Shown piece after piece: positions 21,096-56,669 of a DNA stretch of 64,000 nucleotides. Location of the stretch: assembly GCA_040756875.1 (NCBI GenBank), contig JBFLYH010000002.1, positions 446,644 to 510,643 of the forward strand, given 5' to 3'. A model generated the notes under the pieces. That model was not told the origin of the DNA. It saw nothing but the letters and a program-made list of their open reading frames with translations, and ran no database searches. Position numbers and translations under genes: made by a program. Origin of the DNA: a candidate division FCPU426 bacterium. GTDB lineage: Bacteria; Oederibacteriota; JAAXVQ01; JAUVAV01. The number at the start of each line of letters is the position of its first letter. Position 1 is the stretch's first letter.

Positions 21096-22079
21096 TCAAG
21101 GCTTCAGAAAATACCCTTGCCGTATCCGGTATTCGTTTAAAATTTCTTTATCCGTCACTGACGTCCGGCGTTTTTGTCCCATAAAATAATATCCGGAAGC
21201 GGCCAAAGCCGAATCACGACGCCCAGCCAAATAGTAGTCAAAGTATTTCAAACCAAATGCCGTAAGATGAACGAAAAGCGTCGCGATTTTCTGCATAATG
21301 CCGGATTGAAAAAAAGCCATAAGAAAATTTTTGATTATTTCCGCCAAGGCTACGCCAGGACCGTTGACAATACCCGATGCCAGTTCGTCAAATTGCCGAA
21401 AAAGCCGGCGGTGACCTATGGGCGTATAACGGGTGAAATCATAGGGCCAGCCATGAATCGGTTGCATAAAAGGCGTTTCGGCGTACACCAACGCTCGTGA
21501 CTTAAGTACGCGCCAAATCTCGGCGACGCATGCCGGTGCATCCGCCACATGCTCCAACACCGCTTGCACGATTACCGCATCGAAGTATCCGTCAGGAAAA
21601 GGTATCTGGTGGGCATCTACAATAACGGCCGTCCTTGGCCCAAAGGATACATCCGTTTCGATCAAGCGCAAGTCCGGAAAGCGCAACAGGACTTTTATGC
21701 CTTCGCCAATTATACTGCCGCCTAAAATCAATACTTTGGGGTGGGGGTGTTGCCGCAACAAACGCCCCGCCAACTTTTGGTAATTTGCCGCCGCGGATAT
21801 ATTGCACGACAGTTTGGGCAGCAAATGAAATACCTTTTTTCCCAACGTGGGTCTCGCGGTGTTTTTGAAAAAGGTGTCTTTGCGCTCCAAGTAGTCTCGT
21901 TGTTGAAATACGCTGCGTCTTTCATCAATCATGACCGGAATACCATCCACAATCGGAAAAGTCAGACGGCATGTTTTTTTATCGCACAGCAATTCGTTTT
22001 TTAGCCTGTGCAACCGGGAACCGCAGGCCGGACACCGTAAATCATTATGGTTGAATGGATCTTCTGGTTTAGACATCAT
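21096..22079 (-). CDS. Class I SAM-dependent methyltransferase with N-terminal Trm112-like zinc ribbon (CPACG...C..C)
   Basis: MMSKPEDPFNHNDLRCPACGSRLHRL...CDKKTCRLTFPIVDGIPVM..., then a methyltransferase fold (...VLILGGSIIGEG...VIVQAVLEHV...). Markedly lower GC than neighbours. The ATG at 22079 has GGAAAG 7 nt upstream; the ATG at 22103 is an alternative. Confidence 0.6.
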   Translation of the reverse strand: MMSKPEDPFNHNDLRCPACGSRLHRLKNELLCDKKTCRLTFPIVDGIPVMIDERRSVFQQRDYLERKDTFFKNTARPTLGKKVFHLLPKLSCNISAAANYQKLAGRLLRQHPHPKVLILGGSIIGEGIKVLLRFPDLRLIETDVSFGPRTAVIVDAHQIPFPDGYFDAVIVQAVLEHVADAPACVAEIWRVLKSRALVYAETPFMQPIHGWPYDFTRYTPIGHRRLFRQFDELASGIVNGPGVALAEIIKNFLMAFFQSGIMQKIATLFVHLTAFGLKYFDYYLAGRRDSALAASGYYFMGQKRRTSVTDKEILNEYRIRQGYFLKP

Positions 22080-22106
22080 TTTCGCTTTCCGGATGTGAAC
22101 CATCGT

Positions 22107-22826
22107 TTATTCCGAAGATGCCACGGACCGGTTTTTAATGACGCGCGCCGGCACACCCGCCACAACGCTGAAGGGCGGGACATCCTTGGTCACCACACTG
22201 CCCGCCGCGACCACGCTGCCCTGGCCGATGCGCACGCCGTCCAGTATGATGCAGCCGGTGCCGAGCCAGCAGTTGTCCTCGACCACGATCCCCTGGCGGG
22301 TGACTCCCTGCTGGCGCATGGGGATGCGCGGGTCGGAAAACACGTGGTTCTCCGCGAACAGCCCCACGCGCGGACCCATCAACACGTCCTCGCCGATCTG
22401 AATGAACCCGGCGCAGCCGACGTAACTGAAGGCCCCTACATTGGAGCGGGCGCCGATGGAAAAGCCCTCCCCGAGTTCGCGGCCGTAGTATCCGGAGGGA
22501 CGGATCATGGCCAGGCGCCCGATGGTCACCTGGTCGCCCAGGGTGACGCCGCGCCGGGACAAGCCCTGGACCTCGCAGCCTGATTCCAGCACGACGTTCC
22601 GGCCCAGGTGCAAACAGCGGGGATTGCGAAGCATGGCGCCCGGATGGATGAACTGCATTCCGCGGGCAGATCCAAACCACGGCCGCCACCATAGTCCCCG
22701 CAGCAGGCTCCATCCCATCCGGCCGACAATCGCGAGCACGTCGCCGCCGGTCAGCGCGGGATCCAAAGCGTAGGCCGGATCCTTCTTCATCCGGCGCAAC
22801 AGCGCGTTAATGGTTTTTTTCAGCAT
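22107..22826 (-). CDS. Hexapeptide-repeat (left-handed beta-helix) acetyltransferase (WbbJ/maltose O-acetyltransferase-like)
   Basis: Start MLKKTINALLRRMKKDPAY... Tandem [LIV]G-x4 hexapeptide repeats (...IGARSNVGAFSYVGCAGFIQIGEDVLMGPRVGLF...). Confidence 0.7.
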   Translation of the reverse strand: MLKKTINALLRRMKKDPAYALDPALTGGDVLAIVGRMGWSLLRGLWWRPWFGSARGMQFIHPGAMLRNPRCLHLGRNVVLESGCEVQGLSRRGVTLGDQVTIGRLAMIRPSGYYGRELGEGFSIGARSNVGAFSYVGCAGFIQIGEDVLMGPRVGLFAENHVFSDPRIPMRQQGVTRQGIVVEDNCWLGTGCIILDGVRIGQGSVVAAGSVVTKDVPPFSVVAGVPARVIKNRSVASSE

Positions 22827-23949
22827 GGCGTTTGCACAACTCCCCGGCCAGTGCTTCCAGCGCACGGGCGGATTTTTCCCACGAAAAACGTTCCAGTTGC
22901 CTTCCGCCGGCCTCGGTCAGCTTCGCCGCCGCGTCGGAATCCAGCAGCGAATTCAAGGCGCCGGCTATGGCTGACTCGGACAGTGGATCGAAATACACCG
23001 CGCCGTCGCCGGCTACTTCCCGCAACACGGGCAAATCCGAACACGCCACCGGCGTGCCGCAGGCGAACGCCTCCAGCACCGGAATGCCGAAACCTTCATA
23101 CAGCGTCGGAAACACCAAGGCCGTGGCGCCCTGATACAGGCCGGGCAATTCGGCCAGCGGCAGATGTCCGGTCAGCAGCACCCGTTCGGACAAGCCCAGT
23201 TTCTCAATCTCAGCCCGGACGGTCTCTGAATCGTCCAGATCCTGTTTGGGGCCTGGTTGGCCGACCAAAACCAGGGATATCCCCGAATGGGCCCTGGCCA
23301 CTTCGGCGAACGCCCGGATCAGCCGCGGCAAATTTTTTCTTTTTTCCATGACCCCGACGTGCAGAAAATATCTCTTCGGCCGCAGTCCCCGGCCAGCCAG
23401 CGCCGGGGCGATCTGCCCGGGCAGGGCAGGCCGGTACACCTCGCGGTTGCAGGCCGGCGGCACCACCGCGATCTTGTCCGCCGGCACCTTAAACAGTTCC
23501 GCGATTTGCCGCTTGGCCGTTTCGGTAATCGTGACGATCCGGCCGGCCGAACGGATCGCCGGTTTATAGATCCATTGAAACAGCATCAGCCAAAAACGGT
23601 TGTACTCCGCCGGGCGCAGAATGAACGCCGCATCATAGACGACCACCAGGCGCGGCAGCGGGCAAAAGCGGGGCGACAGGTATTCCGGGGAGAGCAGAAC
23701 GTCGCATCCCTTCCGCCAGGCCAGAAACGGCAGCTGGATTTGAATCCACCCCCACAGGCGCGCGTGGTTCCATATGGTGCCCCACTTGCCGCCGGATTTC
23801 ACCGGATACTCTTCGGGAATGAATTCCCGGATCTCCGTCGGGCTGCCGCCGCGCCGCCAGACGCCCAGCAATTCCCGGATATACACGCCCGCCCCGGTCC
23901 GGGCAGTGGCCAGACAGGCCAGATCCATCCCTATCCGCAAGGGGTTCAC
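22807..23949 (-). CDS. Glycosyltransferase family 4
   Basis: 380 aa. Carries ...LVFPTLYEGFGIPVLEAFACGTPVACSDLPVLREVAGD... Confidence 0.7.
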   Translation of the reverse strand: MNPLRIGMDLACLATARTGAGVYIRELLGVWRRGGSPTEIREFIPEEYPVKSGGKWGTIWNHARLWGWIQIQLPFLAWRKGCDVLLSPEYLSPRFCPLPRLVVVYDAAFILRPAEYNRFWLMLFQWIYKPAIRSAGRIVTITETAKRQIAELFKVPADKIAVVPPACNREVYRPALPGQIAPALAGRGLRPKRYFLHVGVMEKRKNLPRLIRAFAEVARAHSGISLVLVGQPGPKQDLDDSETVRAEIEKLGLSERVLLTGHLPLAELPGLYQGATALVFPTLYEGFGIPVLEAFACGTPVACSDLPVLREVAGDGAVYFDPLSESAIAGALNSLLDSDAAAKLTEAGGRQLERFSWEKSARALEALAGELCKRHAEKNH

Positions 23950-25832
23950 AGCGCCTGAAACTCCTTCGTTTCAGACGGCGCCCGAAGATCGGCGTTATTC
24001 TGGAAAACCCAGCCAATCAGCCACCAGGTAATGAAAACCAGGAAGTAATTAATGTAAACCTGCGACGTCATTCCCAGAATCACAATACTGGAAAGCGCGG
24101 CTAAAGCAATTACAGCAACCCACTGAACAATTTCATTCTTGTTCTGCATGATTACCCTTGCTAGAGCGGCCAGAACGATGCCATGTAAAAAGATGAAAAG
24201 CCCCATGCCCATCAAGCCGATTTCCCTTCCCAAAATGAGATATTGATTCTCGCCGCCGACAGTGCCCTGAAATCGTTTCCCAATAAATCCCGCGCTGCCA
24301 AGTCCGGTACCCGTCATTTGTTGTTGGATGATATCCACGCTTTTCTTCCATTCTCCCAAGTGCCCCTGCGCTGAAGCTTCCTGGAAGGTTGCTGTACCAA
24401 ATATCCATTGGCTTAACTCATTGGTGGCAAAAATAATCAGCGCCAAGGCTGCCGTTAGCCATATTAACCGCCACCCCAAGTGGAGATGTCGGTGGTGTAA
24501 AAACCAGGTCAGCAGCAACAGTTCGACACCCGCGCCGAAAATCGCCGCCCGGGTAAAGGCGAGTAAAAATACCGACATTAAAAAGGAAAAAACCAAAATA
24601 CGGAGCGTCGATTGTTTGGCATTCCTGGCCTGCGCGCACCAATAAACAGTCACAGGTATGATTAGTATCATGGCATAGGCAAAATCGATAGGGCCTAGGA
24701 AAAAACTGCCCAGACGCCGGACAATGTACCCTTCCAGCCAAAAAGTGAATGGCAAACCATTCGGCGTAGGGAAAACACTATTAAATGAGTGTTTAATATA
24801 ATCCGTATATCCCAAATGAAGCCAGATATCGGTAAGCACGAAGCCCTTTTCCAGCGCGCCGGCCAGACAGGCCGCGATACCCAAGGCCAGCATGGCCAGG
24901 AAAAACCGCTTGATTTGATCAGAAGACAGGCTGAACATCCGCCCCAGGTAAAAACAAACGATAAAATACACATTGTAGCGGAGGCTGTACAGCGCGGCAT
25001 GGGGCACCGCCGAACCCCGGGCCTGGTAAAAGGCGGCGAAATTGAAAACCACGAAAACCGCCAACAGGAAATCCGTCCACCCCAACCGCGGTTTGGCCTG
25101 CCCGCTGAACCAAAGCCAGCCGGCTTTGGCCGCCAATACCACCAGCAGGATGTCCTTCCAGGCCCGAATCAATTTATCGGCCATGGGACTCAGGCCGACT
25201 TGTTCGGTTAAAAAAGTCATCATTAAATGGTGCACGGGCAGCAGCAGCAGGAACAGCCACAATCCCAGTTGCGGTTTGTGCCAGGTTAAAACCACCAGCC
25301 AACCCAATACCGCCAGGGCGGCCAGGGAATTGTACCTTCCGCTGAACATCAACATGCCGATAAAGCCCGCGAACAACGCCAAGACAACCGCGGCCGAGCG
25401 ATCGTCAACAGCGCCTTCCCGGCGTTGTTCAAACCAGGCCAGCCAGAGCCCGAATCCACTCAAGATTGTTTTCAGTTCCCAAAACGGGATCCAGCCTCTC
25501 AGCCAGAGATTGCATAGCGTATTAATTATCATGGCAGCTGACATTCCCAAGCCAAAAACGAAAAGCGGACGGCCAAGGGCCAGCGCAAAGATGCTGCTGC
25601 GGCGGAGGCGGTCAAGCAGATAGGTCGAGGTCAAGCCGGCGGACCAGCTTGCCAGCAAGCCCGTCAATCCCAGGCCGCCGGCCCACCACTTCAACAGGAG
25701 GGAACGGCCGGCTGCCGAACGCACTTTCTCAATCCAGGTGGAGATCAGGGAAGTTGAAAACGCGGCTGTGATTTTATCCCACATGTCGGAAAACGCCCGC
25801 GGCTTCCATGCCGATGCAGAAGAGGATTTCAC
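23946..25832 (-). CDS. O-antigen ligase / Wzy-like polymerase family membrane protein (large, 628 aa); low-GC gene
   Basis: Polytopic. Carries ...FTRAAIFGAGVELLLLTWFLHHRH... and ...ILGREIGLMGMGLFIF..., typical of Wzy_C. Roughly 50% GC versus about 68% for the surroundings. Confidence 0.6.
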   Translation of the reverse strand: MKSSSASAWKPRAFSDMWDKITAAFSTSLISTWIEKVRSAAGRSLLLKWWAGGLGLTGLLASWSAGLTSTYLLDRLRRSSIFALALGRPLFVFGLGMSAAMIINTLCNLWLRGWIPFWELKTILSGFGLWLAWFEQRREGAVDDRSAAVVLALFAGFIGMLMFSGRYNSLAALAVLGWLVVLTWHKPQLGLWLFLLLLPVHHLMMTFLTEQVGLSPMADKLIRAWKDILLVVLAAKAGWLWFSGQAKPRLGWTDFLLAVFVVFNFAAFYQARGSAVPHAALYSLRYNVYFIVCFYLGRMFSLSSDQIKRFFLAMLALGIAACLAGALEKGFVLTDIWLHLGYTDYIKHSFNSVFPTPNGLPFTFWLEGYIVRRLGSFFLGPIDFAYAMILIIPVTVYWCAQARNAKQSTLRILVFSFLMSVFLLAFTRAAIFGAGVELLLLTWFLHHRHLHLGWRLIWLTAALALIIFATNELSQWIFGTATFQEASAQGHLGEWKKSVDIIQQQMTGTGLGSAGFIGKRFQGTVGGENQYLILGREIGLMGMGLFIFLHGIVLAALARVIMQNKNEIVQWVAVIALAALSSIVILGMTSQVYINYFLVFITWWLIGWVFQNNADLRAPSETKEFQAL

Positions 25833-26335
25833 GGTTTCGCGAAAGGTTGGTAATCCTGACTGATGATTTCGCCCAGCTGGTTGACCCGGGAGTTGTTCAG
25901 CTCAAACTCCTGGCCGATTTGGAGTTTCAAAACGAACGAGGAATGGCTATAGATCATTTTCGAGGGATAAACCAGCACCGGCCGGTTGAAAAGCACATGC
26001 AATTTGACTTCATTTTTAAAGGGGTGGTTTTCGACGACCAACCGCCCGTTGACGTCGTTGTTGACGATCTTTTCCGGCGTGACCGAAAGGATGTTGTCGA
26101 TCGAGCCATACGACCGCACGCCGCTTTTAAAGCGCAGGCTGTACAACTTGTCGCCCGCTTGCAACGAATCAATGACCGCCTGCGGCTGGTTCTTCAGCAT
26201 CACGCCGACTCCGGTGATTTGCCCGATCGGTTTCGCTCCTCCAATTACTTTGGTTCCAAAGAAAATCGCGGCACCGAAAAACAGAATCAAGACCGACCAA
26301 TCAATAAAATTGAATCTCTTTATAGGATTTTCCAC
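25829..26335 (-). CDS. Small membrane-anchored protein (about 168 aa), paralogue of 6396..6902; likely GTG start
   Basis: GTG at 26335 is preceded by GGGAGGG 8 nt upstream, giving VENPIKRFNFIDWSVLILFFGAAIFFG... with a single N-terminal TM. ATGA-type overlap with the downstream Wzy-like gene. The annotated ATG at 26491 adds an implausible low-complexity N-terminus. Confidence 0.5.
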   Translation of the reverse strand: MENPIKRFNFIDWSVLILFFGAAIFFGTKVIGGAKPIGQITGVGVMLKNQPQAVIDSLQAGDKLYSLRFKSGVRSYGSIDNILSVTPEKIVNNDVNGRLVVENHPFKNEVKLHVLFNRPVLVYPSKMIYSHSSFVLKLQIGQEFELNNSRVNQLGEIISQDYQPFAKP

Positions 26336-26481
26336 CTTGGAACCCTCCCGGAAAGGCGGTATGTTACGGCAACTATACCTGAAAGTCAAATTAAAACGGC
26401 CCTCAAACCGGGGGCCGAACCAGCAGCATTGTACCTCGATTGCACTTTTCGCGATACTTAAAAAATATGGCCGGAAAAGGC

Positions 26482-26510
26482 TTGAAAACACAGCCTGACC
26501 ACTATATTCT
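26482..26510 (+). promoter_or_regulatory. Sigma70-like promoter TTGAAA-N17-TATTCT upstream of the only plus-strand gene
   Basis: Read directly; about 65 nt upstream of the ATG at 26578. Confidence 0.4.
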
Positions 26511-26577
26511 GGCTGCTGATTGCGGGCATGGTAATAGCCCTGAATGCCTTACTCTTTTCCGGGAAAGCACGGTTTTC

Positions 26578-28116
26578 ATGATTCCTGGCAATGCTCAGCG
26601 TTCCATCCGAATACTCCAAGCCGCCCTGATGGCTGTCGCTGCCTGCTATATCGGTCTGTACATCTGGGTGGCGCTCCAGCGCCTGGGATATCCCTTTGAA
26701 TTGGAATGGATCGAAGGCGCGATGGTGGATACAGTCCAAAGGATCCTGGACGGAAAGCCGTTGTTTGTCCAACCTTCCTTGGATTACGGCTATTTCATGT
26801 ACACCCCGTTGTATTTCTGGATTTCAGCCGCCGTGGCTAAATGGATCGGCATCGGGTTTCTTCCCTTGCGATTGGTTTCCTTTGCCTCCTCGCTGGGGTG
26901 TCTGGCCCTGATTTACGCCCTGGTTTTCCATGAAAACCGCAGCCACTGGGCCGGGATGGTCGCTGCCGGCTTGTTTGCGGCTACTTTCAAAATAAGCGGA
27001 GCCTGGTTCGACATTGCGAGGCTCGACTCCCTGTTCCTGCTTTTCACCCTGGCGGCGCTGTATAGCCTGCGCCGCTCCCGGCTGGCCTGGACGTGGCAAC
27101 TACTGACCGGGGTCATGCTTTTTCTGGCATTGCTTGCCAAGCAGGCGGCGCTGATCATCTTTGCGCCGGTGTTGCTGGCCGGGCTGTGGTTTGAGCCCCG
27201 AAAAACGGCGCCGGCCGTCCTGATTGCCGCGGTAATGAGCGCGGCCGCCTACGGCTGGGGCAATTGGGTTTCCCACGGCTGGGTCCATTATTACCTGTTC
27301 GAACTGCCCAGGCACCATCCGTTGCTGCCGAATATCTTCCTGGATTATTGGACCTTGGATTTGTTGAAACCCATGCCCATCGCCCTGGGTTTGTCCTTGT
27401 GGGCAGCCGTTCTTTTTTTAAGGAACCAACAGCCTGGCAATTATTTTTACGGATTAGCCGGTCTGGGCATGGTGGGCGCTTCTTATCTGTTCCGCCTGCA
27501 TTTCGGCGGCTACAACAACGTGCTTTTCCCCGTGTACGCCTGGCTGGCCATGGGTTTCGGCTTGGCGTTGCCCGAGATCCTGCGTCGGCTGCAATCGCCG
27601 GCCTCGGAACCGCGCCCATGGACTGTCGGGACGGCTGTCCTGGTCCTGGGCCTGTGCCTGCTCCAGTTCGGAATGCTGTTTTACGATCCTTCCAAGCAGA
27701 TCCCCACCCCGGCTGACCGTCAAGCCGGCCTGGCTTTCATTGAAAAAATGAAGTCCTTCCCCGGCGATGTCTATGTCCCTTTCACCGGTTATTTGCCGAC
27801 TTTGGCCGGCAAAAAGACCTTTCTCCACCAAGGCACACTGGCCGACATTCTGATCAAAGGCCGGGCGGACAGGACCAGCAAACAATTGTCGGAAGAAATC
27901 CGGCAGGCCATCCGCGAACAAAAGTTTGCGGCCCTGATTACAATCAATGGCGATCTGGCGGACAACCGGTCGCGGTTTCTGGAGCTTTTCGGTGAGGATA
28001 TGCGTGGTTATTACCGGCTCGAGGAACAACTCGCCTGGGGGGACTGCTTCATGCCGGTTACCGGCGCGCCCCGCCGGCCGGAAAACGTGTGGGTGCCGGT
28101 AAAGACCCAGCAATGA
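26578..28116 (+). CDS. GT39/ArnT-like (PMT_2) GT-C glycosyltransferase
   Basis: MIPGNAQRSIRILQAALMAVAACYIGLYIWVALQRLGYPFELEWIEGAM..., polytopic, about 512 aa. The annotated upstream ATG at 26440 is probably an over-extension. Confidence 0.6.
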   Translation: MIPGNAQRSIRILQAALMAVAACYIGLYIWVALQRLGYPFELEWIEGAMVDTVQRILDGKPLFVQPSLDYGYFMYTPLYFWISAAVAKWIGIGFLPLRLVSFASSLGCLALIYALVFHENRSHWAGMVAAGLFAATFKISGAWFDIARLDSLFLLFTLAALYSLRRSRLAWTWQLLTGVMLFLALLAKQAALIIFAPVLLAGLWFEPRKTAPAVLIAAVMSAAAYGWGNWVSHGWVHYYLFELPRHHPLLPNIFLDYWTLDLLKPMPIALGLSLWAAVLFLRNQQPGNYFYGLAGLGMVGASYLFRLHFGGYNNVLFPVYAWLAMGFGLALPEILRRLQSPASEPRPWTVGTAVLVLGLCLLQFGMLFYDPSKQIPTPADRQAGLAFIEKMKSFPGDVYVPFTGYLPTLAGKKTFLHQGTLADILIKGRADRTSKQLSEEIRQAIREQKFAALITINGDLADNRSRFLELFGEDMRGYYRLEEQLAWGDCFMPVTGAPRRPENVWVPVKTQQ

Positions 28117-44905: not shown

Positions 44906-47044
44906 TCATTCCCCGAAAGAGCTGCCTTCTGGTCCCGACCCCACGTGGAATTCCGGGAAAGCCTTTAAATTAAGGCCGAAACCGACGTCATAATGCCCGT
45001 CGGCATACACTTTCAGCCCGGTTTGCATCTCCCAGCAATGCAGGTCGTGCGAAAGGGTCAGGGAATAATTGGTGAATTTTTTTTGCAGCACTTCGAATTG
45101 CAGGCCGGTTTGCAGCGAGATTCCCACCCCGGGCCGCACGCCGGCGGTCAGCATGGCAAACCAGGAATGTTCGCGGCCGGTTTGGCCGATATACGAATAG
45201 GAATTGTTCAAAGCCACATTCCACGCGCTCTGGGCCATGCTGGCGGAAACATACCCCGAGGTGATGCGCTCCTTGAGCCAGTCATGGGTCCCCTGCCAGT
45301 TCAGGGAAACGCCGGAGCCCAGACTGGCATTGCCGCTGAAATTGAGGGCTTCCAGGTGGTCCCGCCAATCCGGCGATTCCTCAAACAGGAAGAATTTATA
45401 GCCCGTACTGCCGCGCAGCACGAAAAAAGTGCCCATAAAATAATCCAGACTCAGGCCCATGCGGTTGGACGTGACGCCGGCGGCTGCCAGCGAGCGGTTG
45501 CCCTCCAGGGAGAACTGCCGGCTGAAGTCGTGGGACAGGCGGCTTTCGACCAGGTGCGTGGGTTTGGTGTAGCGGTAATTCACCCATTTGTTGGTCAGGG
45601 TCAGGTTGGTCGTGTACCCGCCGTCGATCTGGGTTTGGGGCGAGGTTTGATCGCTGGTGTGGTCGGAAAAGACGATTTCCTTGTACGTGCCGGTCAGGGG
45701 CAGGGAGAGCGAGCCCGACAGGCTGGGCTGCGTGGGAACACGCACGGGGAAAGTGTAGGTTTCGGTCAGTCCGGGCGTCAGCCTGAAGCTGTCCACATAA
45801 CGGTCGCGGATGTCGCCGCTGGGAATCACGGTCACGCGCTGGTAGGTGCGGTTCAGCCCGGCGCTCAGGTTCAAATAGAGCGGCTGCACCAGGCTGAACA
45901 GTTTTTGCGGCGTAAGGGAAACAGAAGCGGTCGGCAGTTCACGGCTTTGGGTGTAATAAGTTCCCAGCAGCGGATCCCAATACTCCACGTCGCTGGCATT
46001 CAGGCTCCAATAGAAAATGTCGCCCCGGTGCGAATAGGCCAGGTAGGATTTCTGCTGGAACGAGTCCACCACGTCCGCCGAAAATTCCCGGTTGAACGCC
46101 TGGTCCGAAAGGTAATCCAGGTTGAGCTGCATCTGGTCCCGCTCGCTGAATTCATGGCGGTTGTCCACGTGGGCGGTCCAGCGTTCGGTCCCGAGCTCCT
46201 TGTCCCGCACGTAATAGACCGACAGATCCCCCGCCCCCTTGCCCAGGGCCTCGTAGCCGAGGTGGTGCTCCACGCCCCAGCCCAGGCCTTTGCGCTCCAT
46301 AAGGTCGAGCAGCAGGCCGCCGTAGTTTTCCTTGCCCAGATAATAATTGAAGCGCAGGCGCGCGTACCAGCCTTCAAAATCGTTGTACCCCACGCGGATG
46401 GAAAAAGGCGGCCGGCTGTCCTTGAGCGAGCGCTGGATCCAGGGCAGGTAAAAGACCGGGGTGGTGCCCACGTACAAAACCGCGTGGTGGGCCGTGAGGG
46501 ATTCGCCCAGCACCACGTCGATCCGGCTGGCCGTGAGATGATAATGGGGATGGCGGGCGTCGCAGGTGGTGAACAGGGCGTGGTTGATGGCCACTTCCTT
46601 CTCGCCGTGTTTTTCGACGGACTCGCCCTGGTAATACCAGGGCCGGGTGGCGAAGCGGATGCCCCGCGCGGCGGCCGACTGGCTCTGCAAATCGTAGTCG
46701 AGTTCTGCACAGTGGATGGTCCGGTCGGTTTCAGTCAGCGTGACATTGCCGCGAGCTTCGATCCGGCGGGTGGCGAGGTCCGCCTGCGCCGCGTCGGCGG
46801 TGAGCGTCAGGTTGGAATACCAGATGCGGACCGAGCCGCGCGCTTCCATGCGTCCCGTGTCCTCGGCATAGCTGAGCCAATCCGCGGCCACGCTCACCCG
46901 CTGGCCGGCCGTGGTATTGGGCGCGGCCTCGGGCACAGGCGCAGCCGCCCGGGCGGAAGCGCCCAGGAGCCAGAATGCCGTAACAAAAAAAAGCAGGGGC
47001 GCGCCGTATGCTTGCACGCCCCTGCCGATGGTCTGCATTCTCAT
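44906..47044 (-). CDS. lptD: LPS-assembly outer-membrane protein LptD (OstA-like N-domain plus beta-barrel)
   Basis: Signal-peptide-like start MRMQTIGRGVQAYGAPLLFFVTAFWLLGASARAAAP, then OstA-like beta-jellyroll repeats, then a large barrel with a C-terminal aromatic residue (...FGE, not terminal F). Confidence 0.65.
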   Translation of the reverse strand: MRMQTIGRGVQAYGAPLLFFVTAFWLLGASARAAAPVPEAAPNTTAGQRVSVAADWLSYAEDTGRMEARGSVRIWYSNLTLTADAAQADLATRRIEARGNVTLTETDRTIHCAELDYDLQSQSAAARGIRFATRPWYYQGESVEKHGEKEVAINHALFTTCDARHPHYHLTASRIDVVLGESLTAHHAVLYVGTTPVFYLPWIQRSLKDSRPPFSIRVGYNDFEGWYARLRFNYYLGKENYGGLLLDLMERKGLGWGVEHHLGYEALGKGAGDLSVYYVRDKELGTERWTAHVDNRHEFSERDQMQLNLDYLSDQAFNREFSADVVDSFQQKSYLAYSHRGDIFYWSLNASDVEYWDPLLGTYYTQSRELPTASVSLTPQKLFSLVQPLYLNLSAGLNRTYQRVTVIPSGDIRDRYVDSFRLTPGLTETYTFPVRVPTQPSLSGSLSLPLTGTYKEIVFSDHTSDQTSPQTQIDGGYTTNLTLTNKWVNYRYTKPTHLVESRLSHDFSRQFSLEGNRSLAAAGVTSNRMGLSLDYFMGTFFVLRGSTGYKFFLFEESPDWRDHLEALNFSGNASLGSGVSLNWQGTHDWLKERITSGYVSASMAQSAWNVALNNSYSYIGQTGREHSWFAMLTAGVRPGVGISLQTGLQFEVLQKKFTNYSLTLSHDLHCWEMQTGLKVYADGHYDVGFGLNLKAFPEFHVGSGPEGSSFGE

Positions 47045-47066
47045 CACCCTGCCTTGCGGGCGGGAC

Positions 47067-48170
47067 TCACACAATCGTTTGTTCGGTTTCTTTGTCGAAG
47101 AAATGGGCTTTGCTCATGTCAAGGACGAGATCCATGTCCTGATTGACTTCCAACTGCTCGTACGTGTCCATGCGCGCGATAAAGGGCGTTTTGCCGGTCG
47201 TGAGATAGATGAAGGCGTCCCAGCCCATGGGTTCCACCACTTCCACGGTGGCGGTGATCGTGTTTTCCGGCGACGCGGGATAATACACCTTGTCGTAGAT
47301 GTTTTCCGGCCGGATGCCCATGACCAGTTCCTTGCCCACCAAGTCCTCCAGGGCAGCCGCATGGTCGTCGTGAATCTTGACCGTGAAATTTTCCTCCGAA
47401 AAATACAACACGTCCTTTTTCTTGATGATCGTGCCTTCCATGAAATTCATGGGCGGCGACCCGATGAAACTGGCTACGAACTTGTTGCTGGGCTGGTCGT
47501 ACAGGGTGATGGGGTCGGCGATTTGCTGGATCAGGCCGTCCCGCATGACCACGATCCGGTCGCCCATGGTCATGGCTTCCACCTGGTCGTGCGTCACGTA
47601 GATCATGGTCGCCTGCAGGCGGGTGTGCAGCTTGCCGATCTCGCCGCGCATCTGCACGCGCAGTTTGGCGTCGAGGTTGGAGAGCGGTTCGTCGAAGAGA
47701 AACACCTTGGGATTGCGCACGATCGCGCGCCCCAGGGCCACGCGCTGGCGCTCGCCGCCGGCCAGGGACTTGGGCCGGGAGTCCAGCAGCCGCGTAATGC
47801 TCAGCGTTTCAGCGGCCTCCAAGACGCGGCGTTTGATCTCGTCCTTGGGGAGCTTCTTCAATTTGAGCCCGAAGGCCATGTTCTCATATACGGTCATGTG
47901 CGGATACAGGGCATAGTTCTGGAAAACCATGGCAATATCGCGGTCTTTGGGCGGAAGGTCGTTGACGACTTTGTCGTCGATCAGAATATCGCCGCTGGTG
48001 GCTTCCTCCAGCCCGGCGATCAGGCGCAGGGTGGTGGACTTGCCGCAGCCCGAAGGCCCGACCAGAACGATGAATTCCTTGTCTTCGCAGGTTAAATTGA
48101 CGTTTTGAACGGCATCCCGGTCTTTGCCGGGGAAATGCTTGCGGACATTTTTAAGGACAACCCGTGCCAA
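47067..48170 (-). CDS. ABC transporter ATP-binding protein, MalK/UgpC/MsmK-like (carbohydrate importer ATPase with C-terminal TOBE domain)
   Basis: Walker [10 protein letters not shown], signature [11 protein letters not shown], Walker [13 protein letters not shown]. No permease or SBP genes are adjacent. Confidence 0.75.
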
Positions 48171-50967: not shown

Positions 50968-51231
50968 GGAAGTAGGCTCCATATAAGATTTGATATTAAA
51001 ACATCTTGATTCAAGACTTATTTTCTATATCTGATTAATGATAGCGGAAGCTATGTGGGAATGCTACTTCATTTTTAAACTGCTTTTCCCGAAGAACTCT
51101 GGTGGCTTCGGTTCTTTACAAAACGCCTTAATTCTGCCAGGGGGCTGAAAAACACTCATGACAACAGCTAGTTATACACATCTTTTCATAATCAGAACAT
51201 ATCATTGCCTATTATAACTTTTCGGATATTT

Positions 51232-52689
51232 TCATTTATCAGCAGATTCCGCCGCAAGAGAATAAACCATTAAGGCTTTATCACCCGAACCGACTTCCAG
51301 AACGCAGGTAGACACAATACCTGGAATCGTCCGAAAGGTTTTATCTTGAGCATTCGTAAGTACTAACCATGCCTTCAAAAGATCTTGCCTTGCCCGGGTT
51401 TTAACCACATCATTCAATACCCAGACCGAATCGCCGTCTCGATTTCGTTGGTCGAAGTAACCTGACCGAACATAAACATGGTCGCTCGATGGTTCTAAAT
51501 AATAAGCCAAACAACCTCGTTCAATCAAATCAACAACTAATACTTTGGATGATTCCTCCATGTGCTCGCGTAAATAATTCGCCACCGTTTTATAATCTTG
51601 TTTGGAATATTGGCTCGGCTGCAAATGATATTGATAAACCGGGAATAGCAGTATTCCAACCACCATGACATTTTTTAACCACTTTGGCCCCGGTATCAAT
51701 TCCAATAAAATTGAAGTCCCATATCCCACTACCAAGAGATATATCGGCAATAAAAATATAGTATTACGCGTGGTTACAATCTGAGCATGCGAAGTTATTA
51801 AAAACAGAGATACAAGCATGATCACAAATGCGCTTGCCAGAACCACAAGTTTGTGGTTCTTATGTATTATTGCCATGATTGTACCCAGCAAAAACAAAAG
51901 CGCAAACCCGTAATACCACCCATTAAAAAAACCTATGGAACTATATTGGGAAAGTAGCACAGAAAAAAACAGCGGCAAGAAAGGCATTCCGTATCCCGGG
52001 GTATGCTCCGCGTGGCGAAATTGGTTTAGAAGCAATGGTACCCAAGGGCTAAATATCAGCAGAGAAATGCCCGCATTAACTACCGCTTGAGGTATTTTCC
52101 AGGAAGTGATTTTAACGTTTTTATATCTCCATAGCCAATAGAGGCCTTCGATAACCATAACAAACATTCCAAAATAATGCGTAAGCAGGAGGAGTCCATT
52201 AACTGCTCCCAACCCTATTGCCCAGGGCCAGCTTTGTTCTTCACACCATCGGACAGTCAAATATAAACTAACCAATGACAACAAAAGAAACAGCGAATAC
52301 ATTCTGGCTTCTTGTGAGTAAGCTATGGCCATCGGGGATAAGGTAAAATACATCGTGGGCACCCAAGCCTGTGTTTTGCCAATAAAATAGCGCGCCAATA
52401 AATAAAACACAGGGATGGATAGAATCCCATAAATGGCCGCTGGCAGGCGGACAATCCAGTCCGCTTTCCCAAACACAAGAAAAAATTTCAGCAGGATATA
52501 ATCCAACGGCGGCGAAAGGTGGGTTCCAACGATGCGAAACAGATCATGCCAAGAGGAAGAAGCAGTAATAACCTGGCCAATCTCATCCAGCCAGAGGGAT
52601 TGATGACCTAAATGGTACAAACGGACAATACTTCCTAAAATGACTATAATTAGAAGCGGATTATTTTCTCTGATGTTATTTAGTGTCAT
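51232..52689 (-). CDS. GT39/ArnT-like (PMT_2) GT-C glycosyltransferase, low-GC
   Basis: ...SLWLDEIGQV..., polytopic, 485 aa. The local region is about 42-45% GC. Confidence 0.6.
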   Translation of the reverse strand: MTLNNIRENNPLLIIVILGSIVRLYHLGHQSLWLDEIGQVITASSSWHDLFRIVGTHLSPPLDYILLKFFLVFGKADWIVRLPAAIYGILSIPVFYLLARYFIGKTQAWVPTMYFTLSPMAIAYSQEARMYSLFLLLSLVSLYLTVRWCEEQSWPWAIGLGAVNGLLLLTHYFGMFVMVIEGLYWLWRYKNVKITSWKIPQAVVNAGISLLIFSPWVPLLLNQFRHAEHTPGYGMPFLPLFFSVLLSQYSSIGFFNGWYYGFALLFLLGTIMAIIHKNHKLVVLASAFVIMLVSLFLITSHAQIVTTRNTIFLLPIYLLVVGYGTSILLELIPGPKWLKNVMVVGILLFPVYQYHLQPSQYSKQDYKTVANYLREHMEESSKVLVVDLIERGCLAYYLEPSSDHVYVRSGYFDQRNRDGDSVWVLNDVVKTRARQDLLKAWLVLTNAQDKTFRTIPGIVSTCVLEVGSGDKALMVYSLAAESADK

Positions 52690-52707
52690 TATTAATCAGT
52701 ATTATGT

Positions 52708-53496
52708 TTATTTTATTTTCATAATCCAAATAATCGTCATATTTTTAGGTCTAGTTTCAGTACCTCCCGTTGTTCCAATTATATACGAATTCCAAGTTAT
52801 TGTATGATCAGTAAGAGTATTTGAGATAGGATACTGCCCGCCTCCCGAACCAGCGTCTAACGCTATTGCATGGTTATGAGCTTTAAGGTCATCTGCTTGC
52901 AATACACCCGAAGAAGAACCGCCACGCAAAAATCTTCCTTGATTGTTGAGGTCCGGAATTATTTGTCCATCAAAAACACTTTCCGGATCACTCAGTGTCT
53001 GGCCATTGCATTCCACCCACTGCGAAGAGAGGGTCGGGGCGCCAGGGGGCATGTTTTTATGCCAGGCGATGATACTGCCAATCGGCACATCATAATTCAA
53101 AACAAACGGCACACCGTTGAGCGGCTGGCGGGGTAACATTTCATTATCCGATCCCACCTGCACTCCCAACCAGTACTGATTGCTGAAATCCACATTTTTA
53201 GATAAAAGTGGAGTAGTTACGCCCAGTCGCACGTTGAAATATCCGTTCTTCACTTCCACATTGGTTAAGCTTTCGCTCCATTTGGCCGAGCCAACCAAGG
53301 CATTTGGATCGTCATACAGCCTGAAAGTAATGACATAATTGCCATCTGTCACCGGATTGCCTAGACTGTTGGTCAATCTTCCCTGATAATTAATCGTTCT
53401 TGATGCGGGCGTGGCAAAAACTGTCGAGCAGATCAAGAATAATGAAAGCAACCCCAGTAGTGCTTGCTTTTTCATTTTATTCCTCCCTCTTTTCAT
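52708..53496 (-). CDS. Secreted phage-tail-collar-domain protein (MdpB-like)
   Basis: Signal peptide MKKQALLGLLSLFLICSTVFA. C-terminal region ...IIAWHKNMPPGAP...WVECNGQTL...FDGQIIPDLNNQGRFLRGG...ETRPKNMTIIWIMKIK matches the tail-collar fold consensus. ATGA overlap with the upstream gene. Confidence 0.6.
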   Translation of the reverse strand: MKRGRNKMKKQALLGLLSLFLICSTVFATPASRTINYQGRLTNSLGNPVTDGNYVITFRLYDDPNALVGSAKWSESLTNVEVKNGYFNVRLGVTTPLLSKNVDFSNQYWLGVQVGSDNEMLPRQPLNGVPFVLNYDVPIGSIIAWHKNMPPGAPTLSSQWVECNGQTLSDPESVFDGQIIPDLNNQGRFLRGGSSSGVLQADDLKAHNHAIALDAGSGGGQYPISNTLTDHTITWNSYIIGTTGGTETRPKNMTIIWIMKIK

Positions 53497-54071
53497 TTCA
53501 CCAACGCTATTTTTTTAGACAGCGTGGTTGTTTTTCCTGCTTCAGACTTGGCCTTTATCCATAATAAATAAACGCCATTGGCAATATTGGACGTATCCCA
53601 GGTCCAGCTATTTGAACCCAAGGGTAAACTAGCCCAATGCTGAGAAATCACCAGATCCCCATTGACTGTAAATACTTTCAATTCCACCTCAGCCCGCATG
53701 GCCAAATCAAAATGGATGGTGCCGCGTTTGCCCCGGATAGGGTTAGGTGCGGCATAGACATAGTCCGCGCATATCACTTCTCCTCCGAATGAGCGGATGG
53801 GAGTTGGGGTTACAGTTGGAGTCGGCGCGGGTAAAAAATAGTCATTAAAATATCCGGCCTGAACTGAATAGCGCCCACTCCAGCTTTGGCCTACCAATGA
53901 TTCCCCGCTAGAATCGAACAGATAGATTCCTGAAGATTCCTGGGTATTGCCTGTACTACTGACTTGCATTTGATTGAGCTGGTAATTGGCCGATGATTGA
54001 GCTGCCTCGAGCGGACTGCTGGCAAAGATTATTAAAATAACCGCCAGCCACATTTTCGCAAGCGTCTTCAT
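53493..54071 (-). CDS. Secreted protein with C-terminal T9SS-type (Por_Secre_tail / FlgD-Ig-like) sorting domain
   Basis: Signal peptide MKTLAKMWLAVILIIFASSPLEA. C-terminus ...PNPIRGKRGTIHFDLAMRAEVELKVFTVNGDLVIS...ANGVYLLWIKAKSEAGKTTTLSKKIALVK. Confidence 0.5.
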   Translation of the reverse strand: MKTLAKMWLAVILIIFASSPLEAAQSSANYQLNQMQVSSTGNTQESSGIYLFDSSGESLVGQSWSGRYSVQAGYFNDYFLPAPTPTVTPTPIRSFGGEVICADYVYAAPNPIRGKRGTIHFDLAMRAEVELKVFTVNGDLVISQHWASLPLGSNSWTWDTSNIANGVYLLWIKAKSEAGKTTTLSKKIALVK

Positions 54072-54107
54072 TTTATATCCCCCTTAAACCGGGTGATTTT
54101 ATCATTA

Positions 54108-55877
54108 CTAGAAAGCAATACCTACATTAACACCGACGCCGGGATAAGTAAGCGATACCGATAGCGACGATTTAATATCCATATCAGGGCCTTTTATACT
54201 GCCATTGGTTGCGGTTAGATTGTACAAACCCAGATATGGGGACAACACAAACCAATCATTTTTGCCTAATAATATTTTATATCCCACTTCTGCTCCAATG
54301 GTCAGAACGGTAGCTTTCATCGTCGCTAGTTCTTCATTGAATAGGCTCCCACCTAGCTCCCCTAACTGGTATTTGATTATTGGTCCCATCCAAAAGCCAG
54401 AATACTTCTTACCATCATGCGGTAAATAATATCTCCCCGAAAGACCGGCACCATATATTAAATTACTATATGAAGAAACACCGTTGCTTCCGCTCCTAAT
54501 AGTCAACAGACCTTTTACTGCCGCCGAGAATTCAGAAGTTAATGCTCTTTCATATTCCAATTCCAAGGAAATACCCGACCAATTACTGAAAGAGAATAAT
54601 CCAAGCGGATTTATTGTCAGGGCATTGGGTTTTTCCAAAGATTCCATATGTGATTTTAAAACAGGCCCGGATTTCAGCTCGGTTTCTGTTTTTACCTCTG
54701 GTTTGGCAGGTGTCGCTTTTTCGGATGTAATCTGCGCCATGATCACAGGCGTCGCGTCTGCGGTTTTTTGCGTTGGCTCTGGAGTCGGCGTCTGGGTCGG
54801 CTCTGGGGTTGCAGGAGTTGGCTGGGGAGTGGGTGCGGGCGTGGCCGGAGTTGGAATAGGTGTAGGTGCCGGAGTCATTGGTTCTTCTGACGTCGAGGCT
54901 ATTTCCGTCGGCACAAGCTGACGCAGCGTCCCGCTTCCTTCTCCGGGAATGCGCAGCATCAGGGAAACGCGATGCTGATGCGCCTGCAGTTCGCCGGGAT
55001 CGTAGCGGAAAGCGTAATCCACTTCGTAATATTCCGAACTATAGGAGGCGCCGGCAGTGATGCCCTGGCCGTCATACCCCAGTCTGGCAGCCAAGTTCTG
55101 TATAAACCAATACTCGGCTCCCAACCGAAAATTAAACCGGGAGTATTCGGAAAATTCGATATCCAGGGCTGTAACCAAGTGGTTAAAGTACATCCTGTCC
55201 TGGGATGGAAAGAATTTCAGCGACGTACCGAGTTTGACATTGAGCGGAGTGAAATCCATGCTGTTTTCCGCCACATTCCAATACAACCGCTGAAAGACAT
55301 TTTGCACGTTCAGACCAATAGTATGGTCCAAGTACAATACCGGCTGCCATAAAGCGCCGATATCCAAACCATGGCCAACCGCTGTAAATCCGTCCATTCC
55401 TTGGTGGAGATATTTTAAACTGGCACCCAGCGAAAGGCCCTTGACCCACTCGAAGGTTTTACGTCCATAACTGAGAAAAATGGCATTTTCCGCATTGATA
55501 AAAGTCCCGGCTACTAGGCCGTTTTCATCGCGTTTTTCGATCTCGCCGCTATTGAAATTGATCCAACCTAATTCCAAGTTGCCCACTTCAGGCCATTGAA
55601 ATGCATACGAGAGATAACTGGAACTCATTTGATTAGACAATACGGCATACTGCGATCCGACTTCATACATATATAAATCCATTTGCGCTAAACCTGCCGG
55701 GTTCCAATAACCAGCAGTTGCGTCATCAGCCAAAGCCACGAACGCACCGCCCATTCCTAATGCCCTGGCGCCTACGCCTTGCCGCAAGTAAACGCTACTG
55801 CCGTAATTATTGCCATCCGACCACGCTGAAATCGGAAGTAAAACCAAGGCTATTGCCAACCATGGCATTCTTTTCAT
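54108..55877 (-). CDS. Outer-membrane beta-barrel protein of the FadL/TodX/PorV-like family, with a Pro/Thr-rich insertion
   Basis: Start MKRMPWLAIALVLLPISAWS with GGAGGGGAAGG SD. The N-terminal ...GARALGMGGAFVALADDATAGYWNPAGLA... matches the FadL/PorV N-terminal signature. Central PTPIPTPATPAPTPQPTPATPEPTQTPTPEPTQ linker. Terminal aromatic ...VGIAF. Confidence 0.5.
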   Translation of the reverse strand: MKRMPWLAIALVLLPISAWSDGNNYGSSVYLRQGVGARALGMGGAFVALADDATAGYWNPAGLAQMDLYMYEVGSQYAVLSNQMSSSYLSYAFQWPEVGNLELGWINFNSGEIEKRDENGLVAGTFINAENAIFLSYGRKTFEWVKGLSLGASLKYLHQGMDGFTAVGHGLDIGALWQPVLYLDHTIGLNVQNVFQRLYWNVAENSMDFTPLNVKLGTSLKFFPSQDRMYFNHLVTALDIEFSEYSRFNFRLGAEYWFIQNLAARLGYDGQGITAGASYSSEYYEVDYAFRYDPGELQAHQHRVSLMLRIPGEGSGTLRQLVPTEIASTSEEPMTPAPTPIPTPATPAPTPQPTPATPEPTQTPTPEPTQKTADATPVIMAQITSEKATPAKPEVKTETELKSGPVLKSHMESLEKPNALTINPLGLFSFSNWSGISLELEYERALTSEFSAAVKGLLTIRSGSNGVSSYSNLIYGAGLSGRYYLPHDGKKYSGFWMGPIIKYQLGELGGSLFNEELATMKATVLTIGAEVGYKILLGKNDWFVLSPYLGLYNLTATNGSIKGPDMDIKSSLSVSLTYPGVGVNVGIAF

Positions 55878-55958
55878 CTTGCCTTCCCCTCCGGGATATT
55901 TGTTCTTTTTATATTTAGACTGACAAGACAAAATTTCATTGCACCTTTTATTTATAAA

Positions 55959-56669
55959 TTAGTCCCACAACCCATAGCGCAGGATGCAGTAGAGGGCGCG
56001 GAAGGCGTCCTTGGCCCCGATCTTTTTGCCTTCCTGGTAGGTGCGGCCGTGGTAGGTGATGCCCACCTCGTAGAAGCGCAGGCCCCGGCGGGCGAACTTC
56101 AAGGTGATCTCGGGTTCAAAGCCGAAGCGGTTTTCCTTGAGGGTCACGCCCGTCAGGGCGTCCCGGCGGAAAGCCTTGTAGCACACTTCCATGTCCGTCA
56201 GATTGAGGTTGGAAAAAAGGTTGCACAGGGTGGTGAGAAAGCGGTTGACCAGCGCGTGCCAGAAAAACAGCACGCGGCGCGGCTTAGTGGTGAGCAGACG
56301 GCTGCCGTAAACCACGTCCGCCACCCCGCGCACCAGCGGTTCGAGCAATTCGGGGTAATCGGCCGGATCGTATTCCAGATCGGCATCCTGGACCAAAATC
56401 ACTTCCTGCCGCGCCTGCTTGAAGCCCTCCCGCAAGGCCGCACCCTTGCCTTGATTCCGCGGCTGCCTGAAAACGCGCAGATCCCGGCCCTTCAGCTTGG
56501 CCAGGATGGCGGGCGTGCGGTCCGTGGAGGCGTCGTCCACCACGATGATTTCTTTGGCCAGGGGCACGGCCCGAACGCGGCGGATCAGCTCGGCCACTGT
56601 CTGTTCTTCGTTATAGACGGGAATGACGACGGAAATCGCCGGAAAACGCAGGCGGCCGGAGGCGGGCAT
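55959..56669 (-). CDS. GT2 polyprenyl-phosphate glycosyltransferase (DPM1-like)
   Basis: ...ISVVIPVYNEEQTV...IIVVDDASTDRT...VQDADLEYDP... 236 aa, high GC. Confidence 0.7.
   Translation of the reverse strand: MPASGRLRFPAISVVIPVYNEEQTVAELIRRVRAVPLAKEIIVVDDASTDRTPAILAKLKGRDLRVFRQPRNQGKGAALREGFKQARQEVILVQDADLEYDPADYPELLEPLVRGVADVVYGSRLLTTKPRRVLFFWHALVNRFLTTLCNLFSNLNLTDMEVCYKAFRRDALTGVTLKENRFGFEPEITLKFARRGLRFYEVGITYHGRTYQEGKKIGAKDAFRALYCILRYGLWD

Follow-up and report, generated by a model that had tools for sequence, protein, structure and literature searches.

Fibres that resemble phage tail fibres are emerging as recognition devices of bacteria, with the mosaic adhesive trimer (MAT) fibres of Bdellovibrio bacteriovorus as the main example. 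The N-domain of the MATs has no structural homologue in the Protein Data Bank (PDB) and presumably binds an unidentified surface element, and the means by which the fibres are attached to the cell are explicitly left open for these proteins (Caulton et al., 2024; PMC10769870). Among phage proteins, the trimer of gp12 is described as the zinc protein of the T4 baseplate. Its zinc is bound by the histidines of an HxH motif on the trimer axis, and tips of the gp12 type are expected to bind sugars of the lipopolysaccharide (LPS) type. In P. gingivalis's type IX secretion system (T9SS), PorU and PorZ are kept in place by PorV and PorQ, and type-B cargoes of this system are associated with a cognate PorP/SprF-like barrel, for example SprB with SprF in Flavobacterium. 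Here, a 64-kb stretch of DNA (hereafter the window) from a contig of 1,134,623 bp in a metagenome-assembled genome of candidate division FCPU426 is described, in which two neighbouring genes encode a small protein with an N-terminal motif (N-motif) and a T9SS-type C-terminal sorting domain (CTD), called the adaptor, and a short fibre consisting of a constant N-terminal domain (fibN) and a gp12-like tip. With moderate confidence, the two genes are read as encoding a two-part cell-surface fibre, made of the fibre and the CTD-bearing adaptor, with a PorV/PorQ-family barrel encoded next to them. The partnership of N-motif and fibN with modular ends is new, the pairing not having been found described in the literature searched.

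Loci were gathered through the adaptor family in reference genomes and metagenomes and through exact-protein look-ups, and all open reading frames (ORFs) were scanned with local hidden Markov models (HMMs); loci (L) and proteins (P) are cited below by number where needed. Of 20 distinct loci that could be assessed, 19 have an N-motif gene and a fibN gene side by side on one strand; two further loci, which end at a contig edge, stand outside this count. The sole exception is L029, probably a chimeric contig: the final codons of its adaptor differ, and unrelated DNA follows downstream. The motifs of L024 and L060 were part of the broadened N-motif model used for this count; a narrow model made from the window family only missed L024 and found L059 and both L060 genes (E from 1e-11 to 1e-21). 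Three full adaptor–fibre pairs are present in the sister genome GCA_964630235.1, and at least three adaptor paralogues (AB1439_07970, AB1439_08435, AB1439_10840) are encoded in the genome from which the window was taken.

The distal ends of both partners are exchanged among these loci. Among the fibres encoded next to adaptor genes, fibN is the only common part: the tips are of collar type in the window, L004, L006, L010, L011, L017, L022 and L059, of the Gly_rich_2 family in L012, His-rich in L016 and without a Pfam family in L007, L014 and L015, and the tip of L013 gives a weak gp53-like match (E = 0.011, below the cut-off). In L060 (928-10977), four MAT-type fibres of 483-1058 amino acids (aa) with shaft repeats, two of them ending in Peptidase_S74, are interleaved with two N-motif proteins of 190 aa. 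Among the small partner proteins, the N-motif is in turn the only constant part and the C-terminal modules differ. The adaptors of the window family carry a type-A CTD; P0163 in L059, where the gene order is fibre–fibre–adaptor, ends in a FlgD_ig-like CTD that also passes TIGR04183; and the N-motif proteins of L024 (Zixibacteria) and L060 (twice) end in repeats that were recognised by eye as dockerin-like and have no Pfam match. Further N-motif proteins include P0178, which ends in a membrane helix, and some large proteins that carry the motif at their end.

The two constant parts also diverge together. In small Mantel tests, on only 16 pairs, the correlation was strongest between N-motif and fibN (r = 0.53, p = 2e-4), followed by that between the N-motif and its own CTD (r = 0.43, p = 0.016) and that between CTD and fibN (r = 0.42, p = 0.015), values that are not corrected for phylogeny and are confounded by shared ancestry. 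In L012, N-motif and fibN are closest to those of L013 from another genome and the CTD is closest to that of L015, a paralogue in the same genome, a pattern that would be expected if N-motif and fibre adapt to each other and the CTD keeps pace with the machinery of the host. These observations bear on whether the two genes might encode functionally independent envelope proteins that are merely co-regulated, namely a small T9SS cargo and a periplasmic or exported lectin-like protein of a glycan locus, serving for example in polysaccharide handling. Such independence would agree with the separate signal peptide and ribosome-binding site of each protein, with the richness of the loci in glycan biosynthesis genes and with the fibN fibres of L023 and L025, which have no N-motif neighbour. 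We nevertheless consider it unlikely, in view of an adjacency that persists through changes of gene order, adaptor C-terminal module and fibre tip, of an N-motif that tracks fibN better than its own CTD, and of an adaptor passenger of just ~56 residues that is unfolded alone.

Table 1. Positions of the adaptor–fibre cassette and its parts in the window (position 1 is the first letter of the window).
Feature	Position	Strand	Description
Adaptor gene	53493..54071	-	192 aa, GenBank AB1439_08435 (identical to P0121); signal peptide, N-motif, Pro/Thr linker, CTD
N-motif	53835..54002	-	adaptor aa 24-79; three pseudo-repeats S-x-N/G-Y-x-L/V, conserved QAGYFNDYF end
Pro/Thr linker (LPAPTPTVTPTP)	53799..53834	-	T/P columns invariant, length varies among homologues (alignment)
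T9SS type-A CTD	53496..53798	-	adaptor aa 92-192; HMMs, AlphaFold2, PDB match
Fibre gene (mini-fibre)	52708..53475	-	255 aa from second ATG, the most likely start; GenBank AB1439_08430
fibN, constant N-terminal beta-sandwich	53095..53403	-	fibre aa 25-127; NF053851 match, AlphaFold2
Tail-collar/receptor-binding tip, T4 gp12-like	52711..53094	-	fibre aa 128-255; WVECNG, FLRG, HNH, C-terminal ETRPKNMTIIWIMKIK
HNH of HxH motif	52870-52878	-	fibre aa 200-202
PorV/PorQ-family barrel gene	54108..55877	-	589 aa from ATG 55877; NF033709
PMT_2 (GT-C fold) membrane glycosyltransferase gene	51232..52689	-	last island gene; PF13231 56.2 bits
Low-GC island	50983..55958	.	39-52% GC; GC at third codon positions (GC3) 0.42-0.48

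By sequence and fold, the adaptor is a genuine T9SS type-A CTD protein (Table 1). It matches PF18962 with 30.3 bits (cut-off 27) and TIGR04183 with 27.3 bits (cut-off 23), in both cases over aa 108-177 of 192, and shows PNP and GxY motifs and a K-rich end. An AlphaFold2 model calculated with 34 homologues gives a seven-strand sandwich for aa 93-192 with a predicted local distance difference test score (pLDDT) of 93-97, and among PDB structures it is matched best by that of the PorU CTD from P. gingivalis (6za2; rmsd 2.5 Å over 100 columns, 24% identity). A T9SS sorting domain at the end of the upstream protein had been proposed from the letters of the DNA alone (hereafter the original prediction), and both the curated cut-offs and the PorU-CTD-like fold confirm it. 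The N-motif region (aa 24-88) is modelled with a pLDDT of 44-54, which suggests that the N-motif does not fold alone. The signal peptide, read by eye, has the typical n-h-c pattern with a putative cleavage site between LEA and A. The adaptor family is small, with 35 matches of 182-244 aa (34 of them at 182-209 aa) among 5.8 billion clusters. Its alignment comprises 34 members, P0155 (244 aa) having been left out, and all 34 follow one plan: the signal peptide is succeeded by a motif of ~56 aa with S-I-Q-A-G-F-F-N-D-Y-F at its end, then by a PTPTVTPT linker that differs in length among the members, and finally by the CTD. A profile of the N-motif alone retrieved just 45 representatives at E ≤ 1e-3 among 1.84 billion proteins, and a homologue search with the broadened N-motif alignment gave only six short matches.

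The fibre joins two unlike parts directly, fibN (aa 25-127) abutting the tip (aa 128-255) without the shafts that are found in relatives of 310-1058 aa. An AlphaFold2 model of the monomer calculated with 120 homologues shows a beta-sandwich at aa 25-120 (pLDDT ~97), a confident collar at aa 135-200 and a poorly defined part at aa 200-245, whose low pLDDT would fit a part that folds only in the trimer. NF053851, the model of the MAT N-domain, matches 69 of the 120 fibre relatives (best E = 3.7e-13). No PDB relative of fibN alone was found by sequence search, and a PDB fold search with the whole fibre gave nothing below E = 1e-3; its N-domain led to generic sandwiches only, and the weak matches of the fibre were tail fibres and tail-collar proteins. 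For the tip, the tail-collar fold that the original prediction assigned to the downstream protein stands at the level of the family: Collar (PF07484) matches 71 of the 120 relatives at E < 0.01, with 3.7e-28 as the best value, aa 112-255 of the fibre are recognised by PHROG tail-collar-fibre families with E values down to 3e-9, and the fibre family profile matches the short tail fibre 9cuy (E = 2.6e-9) and T4 gp12 (1ocy, 1pdi and 5iv5; E = 4e-6 to 7e-5) in the PDB. For the window protein alone, PF07484 gives 17.3 bits, below its gathering score of 24. The alignment to gp12 spans the collar, the HxH motif (LKAHNH in the window, SYHKH in gp12) and the C-terminus (ETRPKNMTIIWIMKIK in the window, GNETRPWNISLNYIIKVK in gp12), and HxH is kept in 100 of 109 fibre relatives. 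The fibre has a Sec signal peptide only and carries no sorting domain. The signal peptides of both proteins look to be of the signal peptidase I type as read by eye, with probable cleavage between MKTLAKMWLAVILIIFASSPLEA and A and between MKKQALLGLLSLFLICSTVFA and T. Lipoprotein anchoring of the fibre was considered and rejected, FLIC-S containing no lipobox (by eye).

The barrel encoded next to the pair scores 131.7 bits against NF033709 (PorV/PorQ family; cut-off 90) over aa 49-326 of the long ORF, which upholds the PorV-like barrel noted earlier from the sequence. Its scores are below the equivalog cut-offs of both PorV (56.9 against 250) and PorQ (71.2 against 220), and by sequence it is a member of the PorV/PorQ family of unassigned type. 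It is a possible docking or shuttle partner of the CTD. The barrel also contains a Pro/Thr-rich linker of ~60 residues and a beta-rich C-terminal domain of ~180 aa ending in Phe (54108-54914), for which no Pfam, NCBIfam or PDB match was obtained and which may be a second small barrel; the homologue in L004 is shorter (441 aa). Large CTD proteins are also encoded in related genomes, together with several PorV-like genes that are often their neighbours (L014, L018-L021, L035). In one of them, an FCPU426 genome (L014, 358-4941), a PorV-like barrel and a CTD protein occur in tandem, twice, followed by a second fibN fibre, a layout which suggests that, in this phylum, particular barrels go with particular CTD cargoes.

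In the mechanism proposed here, the base of the fibre, formed by fibN, would lie near the cell and would be joined directly to an exchangeable gp12-like tip with an HxH metal site. The fibre would most likely be trimeric, like gp12 and the MATs, and its ligand is likely to be a carbohydrate or of the LPS type. The N-motif of the adaptor would dock onto the fibN base, one pseudo-repeat for each subunit of the trimer, so that three fibre chains would be bound by one adaptor (3:1), and it would fold only on binding; the Pro/Thr linker would serve as a spacer. The CTD may take the complex through a T9SS-like sorting route, hold it on the outer membrane, or both, the hold being probably provided by the neighbouring PorV/PorQ-family barrel in the manner in which PorV and PorQ hold PorU and PorZ. 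Because the fibre has a Sec signal peptide only, it would reach the surface via the adaptor, riding on it or being captured by it, with the sorting or anchoring signal supplied in trans. The proteins had originally been viewed as parallel secreted cargoes, whereas the evidence points to a fibre and an adaptor, with no sorting domain on the fibre itself; the broader proposal of a small surface-display or adhesin module with a PorV-like barrel is supported in general by the conserved two-gene unit and by the constant base and variable tip of its fibre.

Several points weigh against the reading as a two-part fibre, besides the shared ancestry that confounds the Mantel correlations. The three-repeat periodicity of the N-motif, visible in the window as SANYQL, SGIYLF and SGRYSV (pattern S-x-N-Y-x-L) and as self-similarity peaks of the profile at offsets of 15, 19 and 38 (z = 2.4-3.0), is modest and suggestive rather than strong. 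The match of the window fibre to NF053851 (E = 2e-8, 34 bits) is below the NCBI cut-off of 60. No N-motif gene was found within ~8 kb of the fibN genes of L023 and L025, two of the four fibN contexts looked up in other phyla, so that an adaptor is not a universal companion of such fibres. A PorV-like gene accompanies some of the loci only, a barrel of the PorV/PorQ family standing beside the pair in the window, L001, L004 and L028. The core T9SS genes (SprA, PorK/L/M/N, PorU) were not found within the 64-kb window, and the T9SS reviews consulted describe the system as confined to Bacteroidetes, a phylum to which FCPU426 does not belong.

The adjacency and co-variation described above would equally be seen if the small CTD protein were a transient secretion carrier or an assembly chaperone, which escorts the fibre through a T9SS-like translocon or nucleates its trimerisation and is later removed, for example by cleavage of the CTD, the fibre being retained in another way, for example through binding of its tip to the glycan of its own cell. 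Such a role would account for a fibre that has no sorting signal of its own, and it would suit both the position of the pair within or beside surface-glycan clusters (window, L004, L006 and L007) and the LPS-type sugars expected as ligands of a gp12-type tip. Dockerin-like and CTD modules, however, resemble anchoring or sorting devices and not chaperone domains, and a long Pro/Thr spacer suits a tether better than a chaperone. The present data do not separate the role of a carrier or chaperone from that of a tether; a carrier or chaperone is judged rather unlikely, and the adaptor is taken below as the tether of a two-part surface fibre.

The junction between the two genes was re-examined. The adaptor ORF runs from 54071 to 53493 (192 aa) and the longest fibre ORF from 53496 to 52708 (262 aa), both on the minus strand, and the bases 53496..53493 (ATGA) are common to both. 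The two small proteins were thus correctly recognised by the original prediction, together with the four bases shared by their ORFs; the overlap as a real junction, and with it translational coupling through ATGA, was not borne out. The first fibre ATG (53496) is preceded by a weak GGTG only, 2 nt before it, and the second (53475) by AGGGAGG, 6 nt before it. The GenBank form of the fibre has 255 aa and starts at this second ATG (AB1439_08430, P0001), and in every related locus the gap between adaptor and fibre is at least 21 nt, with no overlap in any of them. Because of the strong Shine-Dalgarno sequence, the GenBank form and these gaps, the fibre gene most likely starts at 53475, 18 nt from the end of the adaptor gene, and the overlap by ATGA probably arises only from the choice of the longest ORF. 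The adaptor gene has its own Shine-Dalgarno sequence (AGGGGGA), which precedes the ATG at 54071 by 6 nt. Linkage of the two genes is tight, yet classic ATGA coupling appears unlikely.

Four co-directional and closely spaced genes, with the pair in the middle between the barrel and the PMT_2 gene, make up an island whose GC and GC3 values (Table 1) compare with 60-68% and 0.75-0.87 in its flanks. The island is situated inside an arginine operon, bordered by a GT2 (family 2 glycosyltransferase) gene and argF/argD at one end and by argG/argH at the opposite end. In the sister genome (L001, 8182-12168), barrel, adaptor and fibre genes occupy the same site, an AbiEii toxin-antitoxin pair replaces PMT_2, and the GC content is likewise below that of the flanks. 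The island proteins of the two genomes are 55-74% identical, against 82-95% for the flanking proteins. Since the same site is occupied in the sister and the island proteins are more diverged than the flanks, the genes are taken to form a surface cassette that evolves fast or has been exchanged repeatedly while its place in the chromosome stayed fixed. A search for signs of mobility at the cassette, which included a repeat search, revealed neither an integrase nor a tRNA, no direct repeats in the flanks and no other such sign, and a promoter and terminator scan was uninformative in the AT-rich island. A defence system was rejected as an explanation, PADLOC giving no match on the cassette.

The base composition of the island is foreign and the tip of the fibre is homologous to phage short tail fibres, as might be the case if a prophage, tailocin or contractile injection system had decayed at this site and left a tail fibre behind. 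This origin is considered very improbable and was rejected. Phage families match aa 112-255 of the fibre only and none of the other island genes; the site has none of the mobility signs named above; the N-motif has no relative, and the single fibN domain no close one, in 2.9 million viral contigs; and the fibre has a Sec signal peptide and belongs to a cassette that is syntenic in the sister genome. The earlier view that the genes are not phage debris thus holds, the pair being conserved in cellular genomes.

The surroundings of the pair include many genes for glycans and, in some loci, genes for toxins. A large surface-glycan cluster occupies positions 1-47100 of the window and includes two Wzx-type flippases, two Wzy_C proteins, sugar-nucleotide enzymes and at least two more PMT_2-like genes; within it, GC3 is lower (0.51-0.69) at 21096-28116, which may be a second exchanged block. 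A 722-aa protein without a Pfam match (44906-47074) adjoins an ABC ATPase gene (47067-48170) and has a homologue of 76% identity at the same position in the sister genome. The PMT_2 gene of the island is accessory and varies among loci. Genes for GT-C enzymes lie downstream of the pair in the window (51232-52689), L007 (12414-15079) and L015 (11862-15137), all of the PMT_2/PMT type, and in L022 (9654-11576; DUF2079), and a Ppm1-like GT2 gene is near the pair in the window (55959-56669), L001, L007 and L013. Because these genes recur and Pro/Thr linkers are present in both adaptor and barrel, O-glycosylation of the linkers is suggested, the linker of the adaptor being one possible site. In one lineage (L007, L032), the adaptor gene is separated from the fibre gene by an inserted PDDEXK_3 nuclease-like gene (L007, 10691-11068) and toxin-antitoxin pairs (HepT/MNT, AbiEii) flank the adaptor–fibre pair, which points to frequent gene turnover in these islands. 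Fibres with fibN and collar are encoded directly beside RHS/YD-repeat toxin genes in L023 (156-6522), a metagenome contig, and in L025 (8001-13800), the latter from an Acidobacteria metagenome-assembled genome, a layout that may link such fibres to contact-dependent antagonism.

If the fibre is indeed held by the adaptor, the cassette offers a testable candidate for the way in which fibres of this kind are fixed to the cell: a tiny adaptor whose N-motif travels with the fibre base and whose other end plugs into the anchoring system of the lineage. A wider proposal, made here tentatively, is that the N-motif serves generally as a docking module, formed by a single chain, for the bases of trimeric fibres of the MAT type. 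Each fibre subunit would be bound by one pseudo-repeat, and different lineages would have fused the motif to different anchors: the T9SS CTD in this cassette, dockerin-like repeats elsewhere, in other phyla, and the pilus-tip domain of PamT in the Candidate Phyla Radiation (CPR). Such a module would reconcile the threefold symmetry of a fibre with an anchor present once, and it would reveal the missing surface element of MAT-like fibres. A fibre borne by the CTD of another protein would also be the first instance in which a T9SS sorting domain acts in trans, with a CTD-less protein exported or displayed by piggy-backing, and would widen the roles of such domains, and extend them to a phylum outside Bacteroidota. 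The small number of parts (a motif of 56 residues and a domain of 100) makes the system convenient for structural work and for engineered surface display. Should binding fail, the two genes would encode no more than ordinary envelope proteins of a glycan island that varies.

Compared with the described systems, the tip resembles T4 gp12, with a profile match over the collar, the HxH motif and a C-terminal ETRPxN...I(I/M)K(V/I)K end; unlike gp12, the window fibre has neither a phage shaft nor a baseplate-binding N-terminus and carries instead a Sec signal and fibN in a cellular locus. The MdpB-type microcystin-dependent or 'phage tail collar' proteins have the same collar-type C-terminal domain, and many collar-only relatives are of 150-250 aa, but these have no fibN domain and no link to an adaptor was seen among the matches. 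PamT, the proposed tip pilin of the CPR Pam pilus (NF058579), resembles the other end of the system, the first ~75 positions of its model matching the N-motif of the window and of all adaptor variants (E from 2.5e-5 to 4.5e-15), with 31 bits over aa 4-74 only for the window adaptor. The scores of ~24-56 bits are far below the cut-off of 240, PamT continues beyond this module with a truncated Ig domain and not with a CTD, and there are no chaperone-usher-like Pam genes here, so that membership of the PamT family was rejected, the N-terminal module alone being common. The likeness, which also involves P0175, P0178, P0179, P0184, P0187, P0189, P0191 and P0198, is a lead and not a test; a tail-fibre-like gene has been reported to be co-located with the pam operon (bioRxiv 10.64898/2026.03.03.709456).

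The adaptor shares with the type-A CTD cargoes of the Bacteroidota T9SS a CTD above the cut-offs, the PNP, GxY and K-rich motifs, the likeness to the PorU CTD and an adjoining PorV/PorQ-family barrel, but its passenger consists of ~56 unfolded residues and is not an enzyme or adhesin, and the organism lies outside that phylum. To our knowledge, there is no established T9SS mechanism in which a CTD is supplied in trans to a second protein. The SprB–SprF type is likewise a surface adhesin system encoded beside its own outer-membrane barrel, whereas here the CTD is of type A, the barrel is of the PorV/PorQ and not the PorP/SprF family, and adhesin and CTD are on separate polypeptides. The nearest counterpart of the whole fibre is the MAT group of Bdellovibrio bacteriovorus (PMC10769870; NF053851), in which a conserved beta-rich N-domain likewise comes directly after the signal peptide and the tips at the C-terminus can be exchanged; the relatives in L060, with their long shafts and Peptidase_S74 ends, have the classic MAT architecture. 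The window fibre differs in its length of 255 aa and in belonging to FCPU426, which is not a predator, and, because it has no shaft and scores under the cut-off of the model, it is called a MAT-like mini-fibre rather than a member of the MATs. No dedicated partner has been described for the MATs, whereas the mini-fibre is accompanied by an adjacent partner gene.

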